NCBI GenBank assembly: GCA_030390025.1
Contig: CM059432.1
Coordinates: 74,526,001-74,586,000, forward strand
Length of the DNA: 60,000 nucleotides
Source of the DNA: Squalus acanthias
Taxonomy: Eukaryota
Direction of reading: 5' to 3'
Shown: piece after piece, positions 27,043-47,849 of the stretch
Layout: every line of letters starts with the position of its first letter
Position numbering within the stretch: position 1 is the stretch's first letter
Made by a program: the position numbers and the translations under genes
Notes under the pieces: generated by a model
Told to the model about the DNA's origin: nothing
The model's input: only the letters and a program-made list of their open reading frames with translations
Database searches by the model: none

Positions 27043-29625
27043 ATTCATTCATGGGATGTGGGCATCGCTGGCAAGGCCAGAATTATTCGCCCATCCTTAA
27101 TTGCCCTTGAGAAGGTGGTGGTGAGCCACCTTCTTGAACCGCTGCAGTCCGTGTGGTGAAGGTACTCCCACAGTGCTGTTAGGGAGGGAGTTCCAGGATT
27201 TTGACCGAGCGACGATGAAGGAACGGCGATATATTTCCAAGTAAGGATGGTGTGAGACTTGGAGGGGAACTTGGAGGTGGTGGTGTTCCCATGCGCCTGC
27301 TGCCCTTGTCCTTCTAGGTGGAAGAGGTCGCAGGTTTGGGAGGTGCTGCCGAAGAAGCCTTGGCGAGTTGCTGCAGTGCATCTTGTAGATGGTACACACT
27401 GCAGCTATGGTATGCCGCTGGTGGAGGGAGTGAATGTTTAAGGTGGTGGATGGGGTGCCAATCAAGCGGGCTGCTTTGTCCTGGATGGTGTCGAGCTTCT
27501 TGAGTGTTGTTAGAGCTGCACTCATCCAGGTAAGTAGAGAATATTCCATCACACTCCTTATTTGTGCCTTGTAGATGGTGGAAAGGCTTTGGGGAGTCAG
27601 GAGGTGAGACACTCGCCGCAGAATACCTAGCCTCTGACCTGCTCTTGTTGCCACAGTATTTATGTGGCTGGTCCAGTTAAGTTTCTGGTCAATGGAGACC
27701 CCCAGGATGTTGATGGTGGCGGATTTGGCGATGGTAATGCCGTTGAATGTCAAGGGGCGGTGGTTAGACTCTCGCTTGTTGGAGATACTCATTGCCTGGC
27801 ACTTGTGTGGCGCGAATGTTACCTGCCACTTATCAGCCCAAGCCTGAATGTCGTCCAGGTCTTATTGCATGCGGGCATAGACTGCTTCATTATCTGAGGA
27901 GTTGCGAATGGCATTGAACACTGTGCAGTCATCAGCGAACATCCCCATTTCTGACCTTATGTTGGAGGGAAGGTCATTGATGAAGCAGCTGAAGATGGTT
28001 GGGCTTAGGACACTGCCTGAGGAACTCCTGCAGCGATGTCCTGGGGCTGTGATGATTGACCTCCAACCAACACAACCATCTTTCTTTGTGCTAGGTATGA
28101 CTCCAGCCAGTGGAGCGATTTCCCTCCGATTCCCAATGACTTCAGTTTTACTAGGGCTCTTTGATGCCACACTCGGTCAAATGCTACCAAGGGCAGTCAC
28201 TCTCACCTCACCTCTGGAATTCAGCTTCTTTGTCCATGTTTGGACCAAGGCTGTAATGAGGTCTGGAGCCGAGTGGTCCTGACGGAACCCAAACTGAGCA
28301 TCAGTGAGCAGGTGCCGCTTGATAGCACTTCGATCCTTCCATCACTTTGCTGATGATTGAGAGTAGACTGATGGGGCGGTAATTGGCCGGATTAGATTTG
28401 TCCTGCTTTTTGTGGACAGGACATACCTGGGCAGTTTTCCACATTGTCCGATAGATGCCAGTGTTGTAGCTGTACTGGGACAGCTTGGCTAGAGGTGTGG
28501 CCAGTTCTGGAGCACAAGCCTTCAGCACGACAGCGGGATGTATTCGAGGCCCATAGCCTTTGCTGTATCCAGCGCGCTCAGCCGTTTCTTGATATCACGT
28601 GGAGTGAATCGAATTGGCTGAAGACTGGCTTCTGTGATGGTGGGGACCTCAGGAGGAGGCTGATATGGATCATCCACTCGGCACTTCTGGCTGAAGATGG
28701 TTGCAAACGCTTCAGCCTTGTCTTTTGCACTCACATGCTTAGCTCCACCATCATTGAGGATGGGGATATTCATGGAGCCTCCTTCTGCCGTTAGTTGTTT
28801 AATGGTCCACCACCATTCACGATTGGATGTGGCAGGACTGCAGAGATTTGATTGTGGGATCACTTAGCCCGCTTTTTAGCATGCATGTAGTCCTGTGTTG
28901 CAGCTTCCAGGTTGGCACTTTTAGGTACTGCTCCTGTCATGCTCTTCTACACTCATAATTGAACCAGGGTTGGTCCCCTGGCTTGATGATAATGGCAGAG
29001 TGAGGGATATGCTGGGCCATGAGGTTACAGATTGTGGTGGAATACAATTGCTATTGCTGCTGCTGCTGATGGATGCCAGCTGATCTGTTCTGAATCTGTC
29101 CCATTTGGCACGGTGGTAGTGGCGCACAACACGATGGTGAAGACAGGACTTCATCTCCACAATGCAGGTGACAGGTAGATTGGTGAGGACAAGTAGGTTT
29201 TTCCCTCATGTTGGTTCTCTCACCTCCTGTCGCAGGCCCAGACCCAGACTGGCAGCTATGTCCTTCATGATGTGGGACATGATGTTGGTGAGGAGGACTT
29301 AGCAGGGTCGACTGGGCTGGGTGTGCGTGTCCGTATTCTTATTCTTATTTCAGTTTGTTACAACTGAATGGCTTGCTAGGCCATTTCAGAGGGCAGTTAA
29401 GAGTCAACCACATTGCTGTCACATATAGGCCAGACCAGGTAAGGATGGCAGATTTCCTTCCCTAAAGGACATTTTACGACAATCCGATTGTTTCATGGTC
29501 ACCATTACTGATACTAGCTTTTTATTCCAGATTTATTTAATTAACCCCAGCTGCCATTGGTGGGTATTTGAACTCATGTCTCTGGATTACTAGTCCAGTA
29601 ACAGGACGGCTATGCTACCGTTCCC
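27043..29625 (-). mobile_element. CR1-group non-LTR retrotransposon, internally deleted, with a tRNA-like 5' head
   Basis: NPANYRPISLLS, AFDRVWH, GVPQ, FADDC, YKAQIRSVMEY. Tail CCCATGAATGAAT. 5' end 29625-29560 has A/B-box-like motifs and a CTGGA-CTAGTAA-TCCAG anticodon-like arm. Confidence 0.85.
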
Positions 29626-34029: not shown

Positions 34030-35127
34030 GGGCCAAAAATTCATCCCATAGAAACATAGAAACATAGAATCTAGGAACAGGAGTAGGCCATTCGGCCCGT
34101 CGAGCCTGCTCCACCATTCAATACGATCATGGCTGATCATCCAAGTCCAGTACCCTGTCCCTGCTTTAATCCCCACAGTACACATATCCCACCCTACCCC
34201 CGTAACCCCACATATTTAATTCCCCTTAACATATCCCATCCTATCCCCATAACCCCACATATTTAATCCCCCCCTAACACTAAGGGTCAATTTTATCATA
34301 GCCAAATCAACCTAACCCGCACATTTTTGGACTGTGGGAGGAAACCGGAGCACCCGGAGAAAACCCACGCAGACACGGGGAGAATGTGCAAACTCCACAC
34401 AGTGCGCGAGAGTACGCAGTGCGTACTCTCGCGTATTCCCTCTGCAATTGCCGGTTTTCTGCATGCCCTGCGCATGCGCTGAAAACCGGCAATTGCTCTT
34501 TTGAAAAGGGGGCGGTTCCTCGGTGCATCGCGTGCGCGCTACAGGCTGCGCGCACGCTGTGCACTTCATGCTTTGGACGCGCAGGTAAGTACTGAAGATT
34601 TTAGAAATGGAAAAAGGAGGAGTAAGACCCACTTTTAACAAGGTAAGTAGTGAATTAAGTATTTTTTTGAATTTTTTTTAACAGCTATATCTTTTTTAGA
34701 GACTTTCAAGACAGGTAAGTTTATTTTTATAACTTTTTAAAAGATTTTAAATTTTTTCAAAAATTTAATTTTTTATTTAAAATGGTTAATTTATTTAACT
34801 ATACTTATTTTATTAATGTGATGGGTTTTTAAAAAAAATTTAATTGAGGTTTAGCTGTTATTTTGGGGGGGTGTAAGATTCATAGATTTCACAGCACGTA
34901 TGTGAAACTTATGAATGGAAGATGGTGTGCTGCCATTGGCTCTAACTGAGTCACGTGATCCCACAGCTCGCACGAATTCACTACGCCGGTGGGATACGCA
35001 AGCACTGCCCGGCTGATGTCTGGAACATCAAGTTCGTGCGAGCTGGATCTGAAAAAGCACAAGCGGAGTGAGAGATCGCGGGGAAGGCTTACCCCTGCGG
35101 GAACAGAGCGAGATCAATTTCTGGGCC
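34030..35127. mobile_element. Non-autonomous DNA transposon (GGCCCAGAAATT-type TIR) with AT-rich core and internal hairpins
   Basis: Ends GGGCCAAAAATT / AATTTCTGGGCC, flanks AAT/ATT. Homologous in reverse to 36904-37430. Confidence 0.7.
34047..34402 (-). repeat. HE1-type V-SINE, 5'-truncated
   Basis: V-domain reverse complement GGGAGGAAACCGGAGCACCCGGAGAAAACCCACGCAGACACGGGGAGAATGTGCAAACTCCACACAG. ~47-bp internal tandem repeat. CR1/HER1-like tail (CATAGAAA)n. Confidence 0.9.
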
Positions 35128-36903: not shown

Positions 36904-37430
36904 GGCCCAGAAATTCGCCTCTCCGGCTTGCCGCGGGGGTAAGGATCGCGCGCGCACTTACCTACCGCGTCTGCCGTTCTGCTTCTGGCCCACGGGGACT
37001 TCAGCTCCTGGGCCTGCTCCAAGTGCCGGCGCGCAGTGCTTGCGTGTTCCAGGGGCGCAGTTAGTGCGATGCGTCCCCTGGGATCACGTGGGCCATGGAG
37101 AGCCAATGGCAGCAGACCATCTTTCATTCATAGATTTGACAGGAAGACCTGTCAAATCTATGAATTGAAATCGGCCCCAAAAGAACAGCTAAACGTCAAA
37201 TAAATTTTAAAAAGTCACATTTTTAAAATAACTATAAGTTAAATAAATTAATTACTTTAAACAAAAATTTAAATTTTTGAAAAAATTAAAATACTTTTTA
37301 ACAGTGCTAAAAATAAACTTACCTTTCTTTAAAGTATCTAAAAATGATAAACCTGTTGAAAAATATTTTAAATTATAATTAATTAACCACTTACCTTGTT
37401 GAAAACGGGTCCTGTGCCTCCTTTTTAAAA
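36904..37430. mobile_element. Truncated half of a GGCCCAGAAATT-type MITE
   Basis: Starts GGCCCAGAAATT after ATA in CR1. Homologous to 34612-35127 reversed. Cut off at the Penelope junction. Confidence 0.7.
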
Positions 37431-38806
37431 TGTGGAGATGCCGGCGTTGGACTGGGGTGGACAAAAATGAGAAGTCGCACAACACCAGGTTATAGTCCAA
37501 CAGATTTATTTAAAATTACAAGCTTTCGGAGCTATCCTGCCCCTTCTTCAGGTAAAGTTACACTGAGTGAATCTACAAAAGTTCACAATATAAACACAGA
37601 TACTACAGAGAAACAATCTTTCCTTACATCAAAGACACACCAAGAGCACAGCCAAGACAATGAGATGTGACCCAGGGGGTCCAACGTGTCAAATCCTGCT
37701 GTCTGCATATCCTCTCCATATCCCTTCCTCTCTCTCCGTCTTTTTTGGGGTTTGTATTTTGGGTTTGTTTTTTTGTGTTTGTTTTTTTAAAAACTGGAAA
37801 GACAGACAACGATGTCAAGTCACGTTCTGTAGCGTGACATGAACCCGATATCCCTATTGAGGCCGTCCTCATGAGTGCGGAACTTGGCTATCAGTTTCTG
37901 CTCGATGATTTTGCGTTGTCGTGTGTCTCGAAGGCCGCCTTGGAGAACGCTAACCCGCAGATCCGAGGCTGAATGCCCTTGACTGCTGAAGTGTTCCCCG
38001 ACTGGGAGGCAACTATCCTGCCTGGCGATTGTTGCGCGGTGTCCGTTCATACGTTGTCTCAGTGTTTGCATGGTCTCGCCGATGTACCATGCTCTGGGGC
38101 ATCCTTTCCTGCAACGTATCAGGTAGACAACGTTGGCCGAGTCACATGAGTATGTACCATGTACCTGGTGGGTAGTGTCCTCACATGTGATGACGGTATC
38201 TGTGTTGATGATCTGGCATGTCTTGCAGAGGTTGCCGTGGCAGGGTTGTGTGGTGTCGTGGTCGCTGTTCTCCTGACAGCTGGGTAATTTGTTGCGGACG
38301 ATGGTACTTTTGAGGTTAGGCGGCTGCTTGAAGGCGAGTAGTGGAGGCGTGGGGATGGCCTTAGCAAGGTGTTCGTCGTCATCGATGACATGTTGAAGGC
38401 TGCGAAGAACATGGCGTAGTTTCTCCGCTCCGGGGAAGTACTGGACGACGTAGGGTACTCTGTTGGTTGTGTCCCGTGTTCGCCTTCTGAGGAGGTCTAT
38501 GTGGTTTTTCGCCATGGCCCGTCGGAACTGTCGATCGACGAGTCGAGCGTCATATCCCGTTCTTACGAGGGCGTCTTTCAGTGTCCGTAGGTGTCCATCG
38601 CGTTCCTCCTCGTCTGAGCAGATCCTGTGTATTCGCAGGGCTTGTCCATAGGGGATGGCTTCTTTAACGTGGTTAGGGTGGAAGCTGGAGAAGTGGAGCA
38701 TCGTGAGGTTGTCCGTGGGCTTGTGGTAGAGTGAAGTGCTGAGGCGTCCGTCTTTGATGGAGATTCGTGTGTCCAAGAATGAAACCGATTCTGAGGAGTA
38801 GTCCAT
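37431..38806 (-). mobile_element. Penelope-like element (Neptune type), inverted 3' copy: RT thumb, Cys linker, GIY-YIG and 3' UTR
   Basis: ORF 38812-37820 uninterrupted: FLD, YHKPT, IPYGQALR, PCHGNLCKTC, NVVYLIRC...YIGET, RMNGH, VGEHF, EQKLI, GLN. Confidence 0.93.
37516..37555 (-). ncRNA. Minimal type-I hammerhead-ribozyme-like motif (PLE pseudo-LTR)
   Basis: TTAC CTGAAGA A GGGGC AGGATA GCTCC GAAA GC TT GTAA: CUGANGA and GAAA cores, stem II, stem I TTAC/GTAA, palindromic AGCT in place of stem III. Confidence 0.65.
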
Positions 38807-38822
38807 CGTCATACAGAACAGA

Positions 38823-40582
38823 ATGGACTATTGCAAAGAAGCATACCAACAACTGGACAACCAGGAACACTACAGACAGCTACCCGCAGATCCGACCAAA
38901 GAACACACCCGCCAACTCAATAGACTGATCAAGACCTTCGATCCAGACCTTCAAAACATCCTACGCGCTCTCATCCCACGTACTCCCCGCGTAGGAGACT
39001 TTTACTGCCTCCCAAAGATACACAAAGCCAACATACCCGGACGTCCTATCGTATCAGGCAATGGAACCCTGTGTGAGAACCTCTCTGGGTACGTCGAGGG
39101 CATCCTGAAACCCATCGTACAGGGAACCCCCAGCTTCTGTCGCGACACTACAGACTTCTTGCAGAAACTCAGCACCCATGGACCAGTTGAACCAGGAACA
39201 CTCCTCGCCACGATGGACGTATCGGCACTCTACACCAATATCCCCCACGATGACGGCATCGCTGCGACAGCCTCAGTACTCAACACCAACAACAGCCAAT
39301 CTCCAGACGCCATCCTACAACTCATTCGCTTCATCCTTGACCACAATGTCTTCACCTTCGACAACCAGTTTTTTACCCAAACACACGGAACAGCAATGGG
39401 GACCAAATTCGCACCCCAATACGCCAACATCTTCATGCACAAGTTCGAGCAAGACTTCTTTGCTGCACAGGACCTCCAACCAATGCTGTACACCAGCTAC
39501 ATCGACGACATCTTCTTCCTTTGGACCCACGGCGAAGGATCACTGAAAGGACTACACGATAGCATCAACAGGTTCCATCCCACCATCAAACTCACCATGG
39601 ACTACTCCTCAGAATCGGTTTCATTCTTGGACACACGAATCTCCATCAAAGACGGACGCCTCAGCACTTCACTCTACCGCAAGCCCACGGACAACCTCAC
39701 GATGCTCCACTTCTCCAGCTTCCACTCTAACCACGTTAAAGAAGCCATCCCCTATGGACAAGCCCTGCGAATACACAGGATCTGCTCAGACGAGGAGGAA
39801 CGCGATGGACACCTACGGACACTGAAAGACGCCCTCGTAAGAACGGGATATGACGCTCGACTCGTCGATCGACAGTTCCGACGGGCCACAGCGAAAAACC
39901 GCATAGACCTCCTCAGAAGGCGAACACAGGACACAACCAACAGAGTACCCTACGTCGTCCAGTACTTCCCCGGAGTGGAGAAACTACGCCATGTTCTTCG
40001 CAGCCTTCAACATGTCATCGATGACGACGAACACCTTGCTAAGGCCATCCCCACGCCTCCACTACTCGCCTTCAAGCAGCCGCTAACCTCAAAAGTACCA
40101 TCGTCCGCAGCAAATTACCCAGCTGTCAGGAGAACAGCGACCACGACACCACACAACCCTGCCACGGCAACCTCTGCAAGACATGCCAGATCATGAACAC
40201 AGATACCGTCATCACACGTGAGGACACTACCCACCAGGTACATGGTACATACTCATGTGACTCGGCCAACGTTGTCTACCTGATACGTTGCAGGAAAGGA
40301 TGCCCCAGAGCATGGTACATCGGCGAGACCATGCAAACACTGAGACAACGTATGAACGGACACCGCGCAACAATCGCCAGGCAGGATAGTTGCCTCCCAG
40401 TCGGGGAACACTTCAGCAGCCAGGGGCATTCAGCCTCGGATCTGCGGGTTAGCGTTCTCCAAGGCGGCCTTCGAGACACACGACAACGCAAAATCATCGA
40501 GCAGAAACTGATAGCCAAGTTCCGCACTCATGAGGACGGCCTCAATAGGGATATCGGGTTCATGTCACGCTGCAGAACGTGA
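38823..40582 (+). pseudogene. PLE reverse transcriptase/GIY-YIG endonuclease ORF, N-terminally truncated, one 1-bp frameshift near 40083
   Basis: ORFs 38823-40196 and 40193-40582 join if the C present in the left arm (CAGCCGCCTAACC vs CAGCCGCTAACC) is restored. Confidence 0.9.
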
Positions 40583-40835
40583 CTCGACATTGTTGTCTGT
40601 CTTTCCAGTTTTAAAAAAAAAAACACAAAAAAAACAAACCCCAAAAAACAAACCCCCCCAAAAAAACACTGCAGACAGCAGGATTTGACACGTTGGACCC
40701 CCTGTGACACATCTCATTGTCTTGGCTGTGCTCTTGGTGTGTCTTTGATGTAAGGACACCTTCCCTGAAAGATTGTATCTCTGCAGTTTCTGTGTTCATA
40801 TACTGTGAAATATTATAGATTCACTCATTGTAACT

Positions 40836-40873
40836 TTACCTGAGGAAGGGGCGACAGCTCCGAAAGCTTGTAA
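40836..40873 (+). ncRNA. Minimal type-I hammerhead-ribozyme-like motif (PLE pseudo-LTR)
   Basis: TTAC CTGAGGA A GGGGC GACA GCTCC GAAA GC TT GTAA. Confidence 0.65.
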
Positions 40874-42299
40874 TTTTAAATAAATCTGTTGGACTATAAC
40901 CTGGTGTTGTGCGACTTCTCATAACATGATTAGGCAGAGTCAACGTGATTTTCTGAAAGGAAAATTGTGTTTAACAAATTTATTAGAGTTTTTTGAGGAT
41001 GTAACTAGCAGGGTAGATAAAGGGGAACCAGTGGATGTAGTATATTTGAATTTCCAAAAGGCATTCGATAAGGTGCCACATAAAAGGTTATTACACAAGA
41101 TAAGGGCTCATGGGGTTGGGGGTAATATATTAACATGGATAGAGGATTGGTTAATGGACAGAAAACAGAGAGTAGGGATAAATGGGTCATCTCCGGTTGG
41201 CAAGCTGTAACTAGTGGGGTGCCACAAGGATCAGTGATTGGGCCTCAGCTATTTACAATCTGTATTATGACTTAGATGAAGGAACCGAGTGCAATATATC
41301 CATGTTTGCTGATGATACAAAGCTAGGTGGGAAATTAAGCTGTGAGGAGGACACAAAGAGCCTGCAAAGGGATAGACAGGTTAACTCTGGGAAATTCCTC
41401 TCCAACGGCAATCATGTAAGCTCCAGGAAACCACAGTGGCTGGGTGACACCAATCCCAATGATTCATTTACCTCTTATATGTAGAGATGTTTACCATTCA
41501 TTCAGCTCCCTTGTGAATGCTTGCAGCAAATCCATACTCACCACATTTATTAGCAACTTATTCTAGAGTAGATTGCATGGTCAAGTCTATAATGGAGCGT
41601 AAACCCACAACCTGTTAGCTCAGAAGTGAGAATGTTATCAATTGAGGCAAGCTGACACCACCCTCTTTGCCCCTATTCTCTCCACAATCTCCAAGTCTCA
41701 CTATCCTGATTTCTGTTGCTTTTTCTTCCATATAGACCGAGGCTCTGCTACTTCCAGCATACAGTAATACACAACCAGCCCACTCCTGCTACAGAAAGTG
41801 CATTCAAAGTAAGTAGTTTTTCTCAATTGTACTGAAACCCATTATGACATGTGCTATTCCAGACAGTATAAATATGACACATAACTCAGGTTCCATGTCT
41901 TACTGAGAAATAAATCACAAACTAGTTACTCTACATATCTCACTAAACATTCAGCGTTGTGCGTTATGTTACCCAATGACTTAGTAATTTCATCTCTGGT
42001 ATCCCACCAAGTTCTATCCTGTATCCTAAATTTAAATCCATTCTCTTGAAGTAAGTCTGACATTATATCCAGCTATCACCATAAATAGAGTAATATAATA
42101 GGAAATCAGTATTCTTAGCAGTTGTCTGAATATTGTTAAGGTTGAGTTGAGCCCAGGCCAAGTCAAAGTTTTTGGTTAGTCCAAAACTTACGCTAGTCTA
42201 AATGAGGTTACATTTCATAACAAATCAGTGCAGTGATACAGCAATTTATTAATAGCTATATTTTAGGATTTTAACATCTGCAGCCACCAGTAGCATAGT

Positions 42300-43260
42300 G
42301 GTGGAAAGGCATTGAGGAGTCAGGAGGTGAGACACTCACTGCAGAATACCCAACTCTGACCTGCTCTTGCTGCCACAGTATTTATGTGGTTGGTCCAGTT
42401 AAGTTTCTGGTCAATGATGACACCCAAGATGTTGATGGTGGGGGATTCGGCGATGGTAATGCCTTTGAATGTCAAGGGGCGGTGGTTAGACGCTCCCTTG
42501 TTGGATATAGTCATTGCCTGGCACTTGTGTGGCACGAATGTTACTTGTCACCTATCAGCCCAAGCCTGAATTTTGTCCAGGCCTTGCTGCATGCGGGCAT
42601 GGACTGCTTCATTAATGAGGAGTTGTGAATGGAACTGAACACTGGTGCAATCATCAGCGATCATCACTAACTCTGACCTTATGATGGAGGGAACATCATT
42701 GATGAAGCAGCTGAAGATGGTTGGGCCTAGGGCACTGCCCTGAGGAACTCCTGCAGCAATGTCCTGGGGCTGAGATGATTGGCCTCCAACAACCACAACC
42801 ATCTTCCTTTGTGCTAGGTATGACTCCAGCCAGTGGAGAGTTTTCACCATTTACTTCAATTTTACTAGGGCTCCTTGATGCCATACTTTGCCAAATGCTG
42901 CCTTGATGTCAGGGGCAGTCACTCTCACCTCACCTCTGGAATTCAGCTGTTTTGTCCATGTTTGGACTAAGGCTGTAATGAGGTCTGGAGCCAAATGCTG
43001 CCTTGATGTCAGGGGCAGTCACTTTCACCTCACCTCTGGAATTCAGCTGTTTTGTCCATGTTTGGACTAAGGCTGTAATGAGGTCTGGGGCCGAGTGGTC
43101 CTGGCGGAACCCAAACTGAGCATCGGTGAGCAAGTTATTGATGAGTAAGTGTCGCTTGATAGCACTGTCGACGACACCTTCCATCACTTTGCTGATGATT
43201 GAGAGTAGACTGATGGGGCGGTAATTGGCCGGATTGGATTTATCCTTCTTTGTGTGGACA
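42300..43260 (-). mobile_element. RT fragment of the same LINE family as 27043-29625
   Basis: DKSNPANYRPISLLSIISKVME, GVPQGSALGP, IADDC. Contains a 100-bp tandem duplication at 42891-43090. Confidence 0.88.
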
Positions 43261-46215: not shown

Positions 46216-47849
46216 CAGCATGAGTCAGTGGTTATGGGAGCACTGGACACAGAGAGAGGATTATGGAACGTGGGGAGGGAAATGTGAGGCGGAAGACCCA
46301 TAGGCCCAGCAGGACTCAGGAGGAAGTTTTGGAGCAGTGTGGATTGCTGGAATCTGGCAGTATTGGGGCTACAGGGTCTGACACTCTAATGGGGCAGAGG
46401 GGCTGCAGGAGGCCTCCTTTCCAACCATCAAGTGCTGATCCACCATGTGTTCCATGTCAGGTACTCCAAACATCACTTTCCCCATCGTCAGCCAGTTCTT
46501 ATCTTTATGTTCTTGCCTTCAAGTATTTCAGTGTAAATGATTTGTTCATTAAAATTAATGGACAGAAAATCATGGGCCAAGGGTGCATGATTTCCTGATA
46601 TGCACTGCTGCTCCTCCCGGTTCCATATTAAAACCACGGGTGTTGGCGGCCACTGTTCGCCCCCTCCCTCCTGATTGCTTCCTTTTCTCTGGACTCACCT
46701 CAGGTCCTTGACCGGCGTCCAAGCTGGTCGAATTTGCTGCCTCCCTCCCCCTGTGAGTTGTCTCTGGGGACGTGAATAAACAAATGAGGCTGGTGGACCA
46801 ATTTGCTGTGGTCTTGCCGCCAAACTCTTTAGGCACTTCACCCGGAATTTGCCCCAATTTGGCGCAATCCAATTTCTAGGCCAATATATTTAATCAAATA
46901 TGATGATTGATTCAATGAAATTGCCACGGTGGCGGAGTGGATCACCTGCTCATTATAGAACTGATTCGATTTTTGTCCTATCGAAATCCCAGGCTACCCT
47001 GTTGAAAATGACCCCCAATCTGTTTTCTAACCAACACGCTGTTATTATTCCCATGTGTATTTTCTGTGAGGAGTTCATATTAGAAAAGCACAATTGTAAT
47101 ATATTTACATAAATGTGCGTCCTATCTGAAAAATTATTCTCCAATTTCTTTCAAAGCCTTGCAGATAAGACAAAATAACTCAGATCCTCACAGGTTGAGG
47201 GACATACCCTTTTACTCTTTAACTCCTGCTGATGAATAAATTGTACACTGGGAAATTCCAGAAAGTGCACATGCTCAGAATGAACAGATGTGATTGAAAC
47301 CTCTCTCAACTAAATATTTAGTCAAAGCCTAGGCTTTTCAGATAGGCTGAGGCCTTCAAGTAAAATCTTTAATAAAGGCATTAAAAGACACAAAAGATAA
47401 TTCGATGGATAAATGTAATCATATTGTTATGAAATATGTATTTTCTGATTTTTAAATTTTGTTTGAACCATTATTCAGAAATTTTAAATTAAAGTTACTG
47501 AGGAAAAAATGGCGAATAAAAAAAATTCAGATGAAGGTTGACAAATCTGCTCCACAACACCACCCAGTGGCCAGAACATGGAACTATAGAGTCACAGGCG
47601 ATTACATTCATAGGAAAATCTTATTAAAATGTGACAGGGCAGGAGTCACCAGATGTGGACAAAATATGGAAAAGCCGATAGACACTGTTGACATAAGCCT
47701 TTTGAATGGAAAGATAAGAGGACATACCATTTTAACAGTATATAAATATCATCTGGAATCCTCTGTCTTAGTCTTTTGGCTCAGTGGATGGCAGTAAGCC
47801 TATTCTTTAAATGCGATTCACCTCTAATCTTCTCATCTCCTCTCCTCAT

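Follow-up and report, generated by a model that had tools for sequence, protein, structure and literature searches.

The head-to-head layout, a tail at one side only, palindromes at the junction and the occasional lack of a target site duplication (TSD) are all published features of Penelope-like elements (PLEs). The closest described systems, according to the available portions of the sources cited here, are the Pen2a_Av/Pen2_Av units of Adineta vaga (PMC3846280; scheme in PMC8557442), in which an inverted, 5′-truncated copy is joined at its 5′ end, the 3′ ends face outward, one end carries a tail of 30–40 bp, the junction holds a palindrome and the terminal repeat contains a hammerhead motif. 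In the same portions, head-to-head is the arrangement observed most frequently, with junction palindromes and a proposal of self-priming (PMC3846280), PLE copies that have a microhomology junction and no TSD are described, some of these units among them (PMC3846280), and the mechanism that generates inverted PLE units is stated as unresolved (PMC8557442; PMC3846280).

Two further systems have to be considered. [quoted passage not shown] In the L1 bridges, as far as the available part of their description goes (bioRxiv 10.1101/2024.08.27.596794), two primed cDNAs are joined by microcomplementarity, and in one of these bridges two inverted, 5′-truncated L1s, both of which keep a 3′ end, meet at their 5′ breakpoints, whereas classic L1 twin priming uses one RNA, from which largely non-overlapping segments are copied.

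The locus considered here lies in a window of 60,000 nucleotides of Squalus acanthias (the whole stretch of DNA analysed: assembly GCA_030390025.1, contig CM059432.1, positions 74,526,001 to 74,586,000), and its features are collected in Table 1. Two PLE copies, both 5′-truncated, lie inverted and adjacent, joined 5′-to-5′; the right copy spans 38803-40922 (2120 bp) and the left one runs from 38806 down to 37430 (1377 bp including its tail). Local alignment of the reverse complement of 37467-38809 with 39594-40922 gave 1278 matches, 31 mismatches and 54 gap columns (93.8% by blastn), and the tblastn frames (−3 and +3/+2) place the 3′ ends of both arms outward, which confirms the inverted arms, the 790-bp spacer and the outward ends of the original prediction; judged from the letters of the assembly, the observed structure is confirmed as real and located as claimed. 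The rarity that had been implied for such a layout finds no support, given its published frequency (PMC3846280, portion available). No direct repeat of the PLE (direct pLTR or partial tandem) was found within the 60-kb window, and no direct pLTR would be expected, since both copies are truncated; the only two family ends within the 60 kb are those of this pair. The locus shares with the A. vaga units all the features listed above, the lack of a TSD and the microhomology junction of some copies included, but it has neither a full-length copy nor a direct pLTR, its inverted copy has 1 kb of ORF, it misses about 0.75 kb of target, and its arms carry different UTRs on a shared ORF.

Table 1. Features of the inverted PLE pair and of its flanks (positions in the window).
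Feature	Position	Strand	Evidence
Decayed 5′ piece of a CR1-type LINE ORF2, covering the endonuclease region as far as about residue 370 of P0160	35759..36903	+	tblastn; Pfam Exo_endo_phos_2
MITE-like remnant that keeps one terminal inverted repeat (36904-36915) and lacks the opposite end	36904..37429		78% match to 34611-35011; terminal repeat search
PLE tail, 37 nt, left copy only	37430..37466	-	arm comparison; outer boundary uncertain by about 2 nt
Left arm (1340 bp): 5′-truncated PLE copy (end of RT thumb, Cys linker, GIY-YIG endonuclease, UTR)	37467..38806	-	alignment, tblastn
Minimal hammerhead-like motif (predicted), left copy (CTGANGA, stem II, GAAA, palindromic AAGCTT)	37524..37551	-	own descriptor; stem II in fold
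Local hairpin TAGTCCAT / ATGGACTA across the junction	38799..38830		folding, homologue residue check
5′-to-5′ junction, CCAT, microhomology of 2 to 4 nt	38803..38806		alignment, residue check
Spacer (790 bp): holds the RT core of the right copy; the truncation lies three codons past the DKG motif	38807..39596	+	Pfam RVT_1, comparison with P0001
Right arm (1326 bp): 3′ part of the longer copy (38803-40922), 1-bp deletion near 40083, without tail	39597..40922	+	alignment
Minimal hammerhead-like motif (predicted), right copy	40840..40865	+	own descriptor; fold
Continuation of CR1 ORF2 from about residue 551 of P0160; piece itself cut at its 3′ side	40920..41384	+	tblastn

On sequence grounds, the element is an endonuclease-bearing PLE with relatives in sharks. 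The frame of the right copy contains an RVT_1 domain (Pfam, E 1e-8), its best protein matches are all from cartilaginous fish, and it is 90% identical to a protein of Heptranchias (P0001), in which a DKG motif stands just ahead of the truncation point. The left frame (37823-38806) is open for 328 aa and, by inspection, shows a GIY-YIG core (VVYLIRCRKGC...WYIG), followed by R, H, E and N, together with a CCHH motif; direct Pfam scans gave no match to GIY-YIG, and this endonuclease aligns to P0034, a carrier of PF01541. The linker between the RT and the endonuclease, CHGNLCKTC (CX4CxxC), conforms to the CX2-5CxxC pattern which PMC8557442, in the part available, gives for Neptune and Nematis. From this motif, which Nematis also has, the clade is probably of the Neptune type, with which the locus shares the C-terminal GIY-YIG endonuclease with CCHH and the CX4CxxC linker upstream, although no microsatellite target is present at the locus. 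Among 146 homologous proteins searched for inverted PLE pieces, one (P0053) has a clear antisense piece, which is only a hint, as it stands in a gene model that is possibly spliced. A 20-base pattern of the 3′ end had no matches in metagenome contigs or in prokaryote genomes, and of 98 candidate stretches in metagenome contigs, scanned at the protein level, a single one was confirmed, which at 30% identity is no member of the family. As for public sequencing runs, among the 20 matches listed, five, from two studies, contain at least half of the query words, these shares, which are not specific to the junction, being given no weight here.

The original prediction had the CR1 ORF2 resuming on the right, and this is borne out, the left and right pieces being colinear by tblastn. 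About 180 codons (~540 bp) are missing between 36903 and 40920, and the same landmarks stand 193-200 residues apart in the 8 proteins, out of 19, that gave a valid position for both (P0167 was dropped for an empty match). The left flank, described earlier as half a MITE, is closer to 70% of the element, judged from a second copy in the window, which is bounded by terminal repeats (34030; 35116-35127) and interrupted by an insertion that looks by eye like a SINE; from the same copy, the part missing is estimated at near 230 bp. The flank missing in total would thus be ~0.75 kb, provided that both CR1 pieces belong to one copy, for which colinearity is the sole basis. Between 37385-37434 and 40918-40965 there is no common word of at least 6 bases (one mismatch permitted from 8 up), and just three A-rich 5-mers are common to the flanks, in agreement with the claimed absence of a TSD. 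The CAT at 40920-40922 fits both the end of the PLE and a His codon of CR1 (His in P0160, P0158 and P0163). The right CR1 piece is cut near 41384 and no 3′ end follows, so that unrelated deletions, without any PLE, do happen in the region. Of the loss of host DNA proposed earlier, the absence of the DNA is therefore supported, by the gap in the colinear CR1 and the missing end of the MITE, while we infer that it was lost at insertion. In the main texts that the literature searches covered, no large deletion of target DNA between head-to-head copies of a PLE is described, which is a weak negative.

What is new at the locus, beside the missing flank, is the mosaic character of the arms, a shared ORF with different UTRs. 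In the ORF part (986 columns) the arms differ by 13 substitutions, 6 of them non-CpG, and one 1-bp deletion; in the UTR part (320 columns), by 17 substitutions, 15 of them non-CpG, and 8 indels, which include one of 30 bp and one of 12 bp, so that the earlier term “palindrome” is not strictly true. Without the A-rich, low-complexity part at 40583-40669, to which 5 substitutions and 4 indels in 81 columns belong, the UTR has 12 non-CpG changes in 239 columns and 4 indels, against 6 changes in 986 columns of the ORF (Fisher p 1.4e-5). Fourfold sites differ between the ORF arms at 0 of 148 positions (p 0.004 against the UTR), and 10 of the 12 changed ORF codons are non-synonymous; polarised on the shark homologues, the ORF changes comprise 5 private to the left arm, 6 plus the deletion private to the right, and 2 synonymous ones left unpolarised. 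CpG positions make up 142 of 984 and hold 7 of the 13 differences, an enrichment (p 0.0009) toward which the class itself is biased, as it was drawn from the arms. The differences in the ORF resemble post-insertion decay only, and the two arms appear equally old, given the balance of private changes between left and right; the inner 1 kb would have been the same or nearly the same at birth, and the outer 250 bp would have come from different sources. A recent gene conversion from arm to arm is ruled out by the private frameshift and the balanced private changes.

With respect to the 3′ ends, the left end had been placed at 37467, which holds for the arm but overlooked the extra tail outside it, absent on the right; its length falls inside the range published for the one-sided tail of PLEs (PMC8557442, part available). 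The right copy, without tail, ends in CTTCTCAT, plausibly a native start site of reverse transcription. Near each 3′ end a minimal hammerhead-like motif is predicted, of a type taken from PMC4209133 (part available): our own descriptor, applied to both strands of the 60 kb, found two sites, one in each arm, and an Rfam scan gave no hammerhead match, its sole match being a chance snoRNA (E 4.5). The folding of the two 3′ ends is unremarkable (z 0.21, −1.53, −1.25).

The CCAT of the junction opens the left arm, and CCATGG is present at 39595-39600. The microhomology predicted there stands in part: AT, within a conserved Ile codon, belongs firmly to the right copy, and the first C, in a likely Ala codon, probably does, whereas the second C, which falls at a third codon position, only possibly does. 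At random junctions in the ORF, at least 4 shared bases would occur by chance in 1.3%, at least 3 in 4% and at least 2 in 14%. The predicted hairpin does fold as DNA (z −2.26, equally good in 4 of 200 shuffles), but the perfection of its 8 bp at insertion is doubtful, as it leans on the ATG at 38823, where the 19 shark homologues have Thr (16), Met (2) or Lys (1); with Thr in 16 of the 19, the hairpin at insertion probably had 7 of the 8 pairs, a later CpG transition having perfected it. The junction fits a fold-back and the annealing of two cDNAs equally, and offers no choice between them.

The best reading, for which confidence and doubt are evenly matched, is one event, in which two cDNAs were primed at nicks about 0.75 kb apart and joined at their 5′ ends. 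One nick by the PLE endonuclease would have opened the top strand near 37430, at an AT-rich spot of the MITE, and another the bottom strand near 40922, within CR1, the two sites being separated by ~0.75 kb before the insertion; each nicked 3′ end would have primed the reverse transcription of a PLE RNA, on the left at the distal start site, which includes the tail, and on the right at the proximal one, without it. The two template RNAs would have had nearly the same ORF and different UTR modules. The cDNAs would have stopped after about 1.38 and 2.12 kb and met at ATGG/CCAT, perhaps with the help of the local hairpin, each then serving as template for the second strand of the other; given a top nick that lies left of the bottom one, the intervening DNA would have been lost and not duplicated. 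The core of this, priming on opposite strands and annealing through ATGG/CCAT, had been proposed from the outset, and it agrees with the geometry, with a tail on one side only, and with arms of equal age but different UTRs. Both copies, moreover, end outward where a native end is plausible and where a short match to the target exists.

There are precedents for such an event. PAc nicks and extends both strands, as proposed here, and the two start sites bounding the tail and the AT-rich targets are also shared; however, it belongs to a different clade and starts reverse transcription without target homology, whereas the locus has possible matches of 2-3 nt. The L1 bridge mentioned above, with two inverted elements, has the same layout; here the UTRs differ, yet the ORFs show no silent lineage differences, and whereas L1 bridges join distant sites with heteroduplications, the ends at this locus are less than 1 kb apart and DNA was lost. 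Twin priming of the L1 type, from one RNA, is rejected, as both copies have 3′ ends and 1.3 kb in common. Against the simplest form of the two-template model, lineages 5% apart in the UTR should differ at silent sites of the ORF, and none of the fourfold sites does; two templates would therefore need a swapping of UTRs within the family, conversion from arm to arm, or a fold-back combined with a second cDNA. In addition, the verified microhomology may be of only 2-3 nt (14% and 4% by chance), and the region has other unexplained losses, such as the cut in the right CR1 piece.

A later rearrangement, its three versions taken jointly, is unlikely, though it has more in its favor than the other alternatives. 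Two separate insertions of opposite orientation could have been followed by a microhomology-mediated deletion between them; or recombination between the left arm of an ordinary head-to-head unit and a short solo copy, situated upstream in the MITE, could have removed the stretch separating them; or a deletion could have started later from the right end, through the CAT match. The lack of a TSD, the missing 0.75 kb and the different UTRs would all be accounted for, and the solo copy would also explain the mosaic of an identical inner ORF and a foreign outer UTR, in a region where other deletions are evident and in elements for which microhomology-mediated deletions are documented (PMC3846280, portion available). 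However, either a second independent copy is needed within about 1 kb, which is unexpected with just two family ends in the 60 kb, or a breakpoint exactly at the boundary of the tail, and the arms are equally old.

The alternative in which, within one event, the right cDNA folds back, copies itself for ~1 kb and then joins a short second cDNA by long homology is improbable. The ATGG end would have paired in the local hairpin, added ACTA and jumped to the ATGGACTA site, and the second cDNA, consisting of tail and UTR from another RNA, would have been primed at the left nick. It would give directly ORF arms without silent differences, a different UTR and a tail on the left only; the cDNA end does fold ATGG onto CCAT, though with z −0.64 for that strand alone, and the left arm opens with 8 nt that find a match 20 nt into the right copy (probability by chance 0.08% for an exact match, 1.4% when one mismatch is allowed). 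On the other hand, this scheme is longer, the hairpin probably still had a mismatch when the insertion took place, and no datum separates the scheme from a swapping of UTRs among source elements.

A pure fold-back, in which a single self-primed cDNA copied itself into the left arm, is very improbable. The geometry of the junction permits it, the ORF arms look identical at birth, and self-priming has been proposed for PLEs (PMC3846280, portion available), but this option of the original prediction fails on the UTR differences and the one-sided tail: it cannot yield a tail absent from its template, unless the right tail was later lost, nor UTRs 5% apart (12 of 239 non-CpG changes and indels of 30 and 12 bp) beside ORFs that differ by 6 of 986 and in private decay only. 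An artefact of assembly or reads, such as a fold-back chimera or a false join, is just as improbable, for although such structures trouble assemblies (PMC8557442, part available), the arm differences are enriched at CpG and balanced between the arms, unlike a mirrored read, and the flanks are colinear CR1.

In summary, the locus speaks against plain self-priming and in favor of two priming events. One decayed insertion cannot settle the mechanism of the PLEs, and the layout itself is already published; the mosaic arms and the missing flank are a useful single data point on the mechanism, not a new system. More tentatively, a PLE dimer could routinely build head-to-head units from two nicks and two RNA 3′ ends, one for each start site of reverse transcription, so that distant, reverse-staggered nicks would give host deletions on the order of a kilobase, and in this case a second cDNA may have been spliced to an inner 1 kb made by fold-back. 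If this were true, the abundant PLEs of sharks would be a source of deletions in the germline, and mosaic arms would record template switches.

The right piece of CR1, the LINE whose ORF2 lies around the head-to-head Penelope-like element (PLE) pair, ends abruptly at 41384, inside the RT region, and no 3′ end of this piece was found downstream of that position; the cut at this point is a second loss, separate from the PLE junctions. A tandem duplication of 100 bp, with 98% identity, occupies 42890-43092 within a LINE fragment that is also similar to 27576-28418.

The MITE remnant that forms the left flank of the PLE pair (36904-37429) has a second family member in the window, a MITE-like copy at 34030-35127, in the opposite orientation and carrying an internal insertion that by eye is SINE-like. 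The terminal repeat is matched once more, at 46871-46882, near which blast gave no similarity to the MITE bodies.

Repeat features of the second MITE-like copy
Feature	Position
Terminal repeats	34030-34041 and 35116-35127
Internal palindromes	34444-34496

Several decayed Harbinger-like transposons, in which DDE_Tnp_4 and Myb/SANT domains are present, are also found in the window, at 1.5-6.2 kb, 14.3-18.2 kb and 52-58.8 kb, and the stretches 14.3-18.1 kb and 52-55.9 kb are mutually inverted, at ~75-94%.

In the PLE pair itself, the left UTR contains, relative to the right, a purine-rich insertion of 30 bp (37707-37737) which adjoins the A-rich tract 3′ of the stop codon, and which is possibly a subfamily marker. 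Among the 146 homologous proteins searched for inverted PLE pieces, the eukaryote gene model P0053 begins with antisense PLE (residues 1-55), followed by the PLE ORF in forward sense, and possibly represents another inverted PLE unit.
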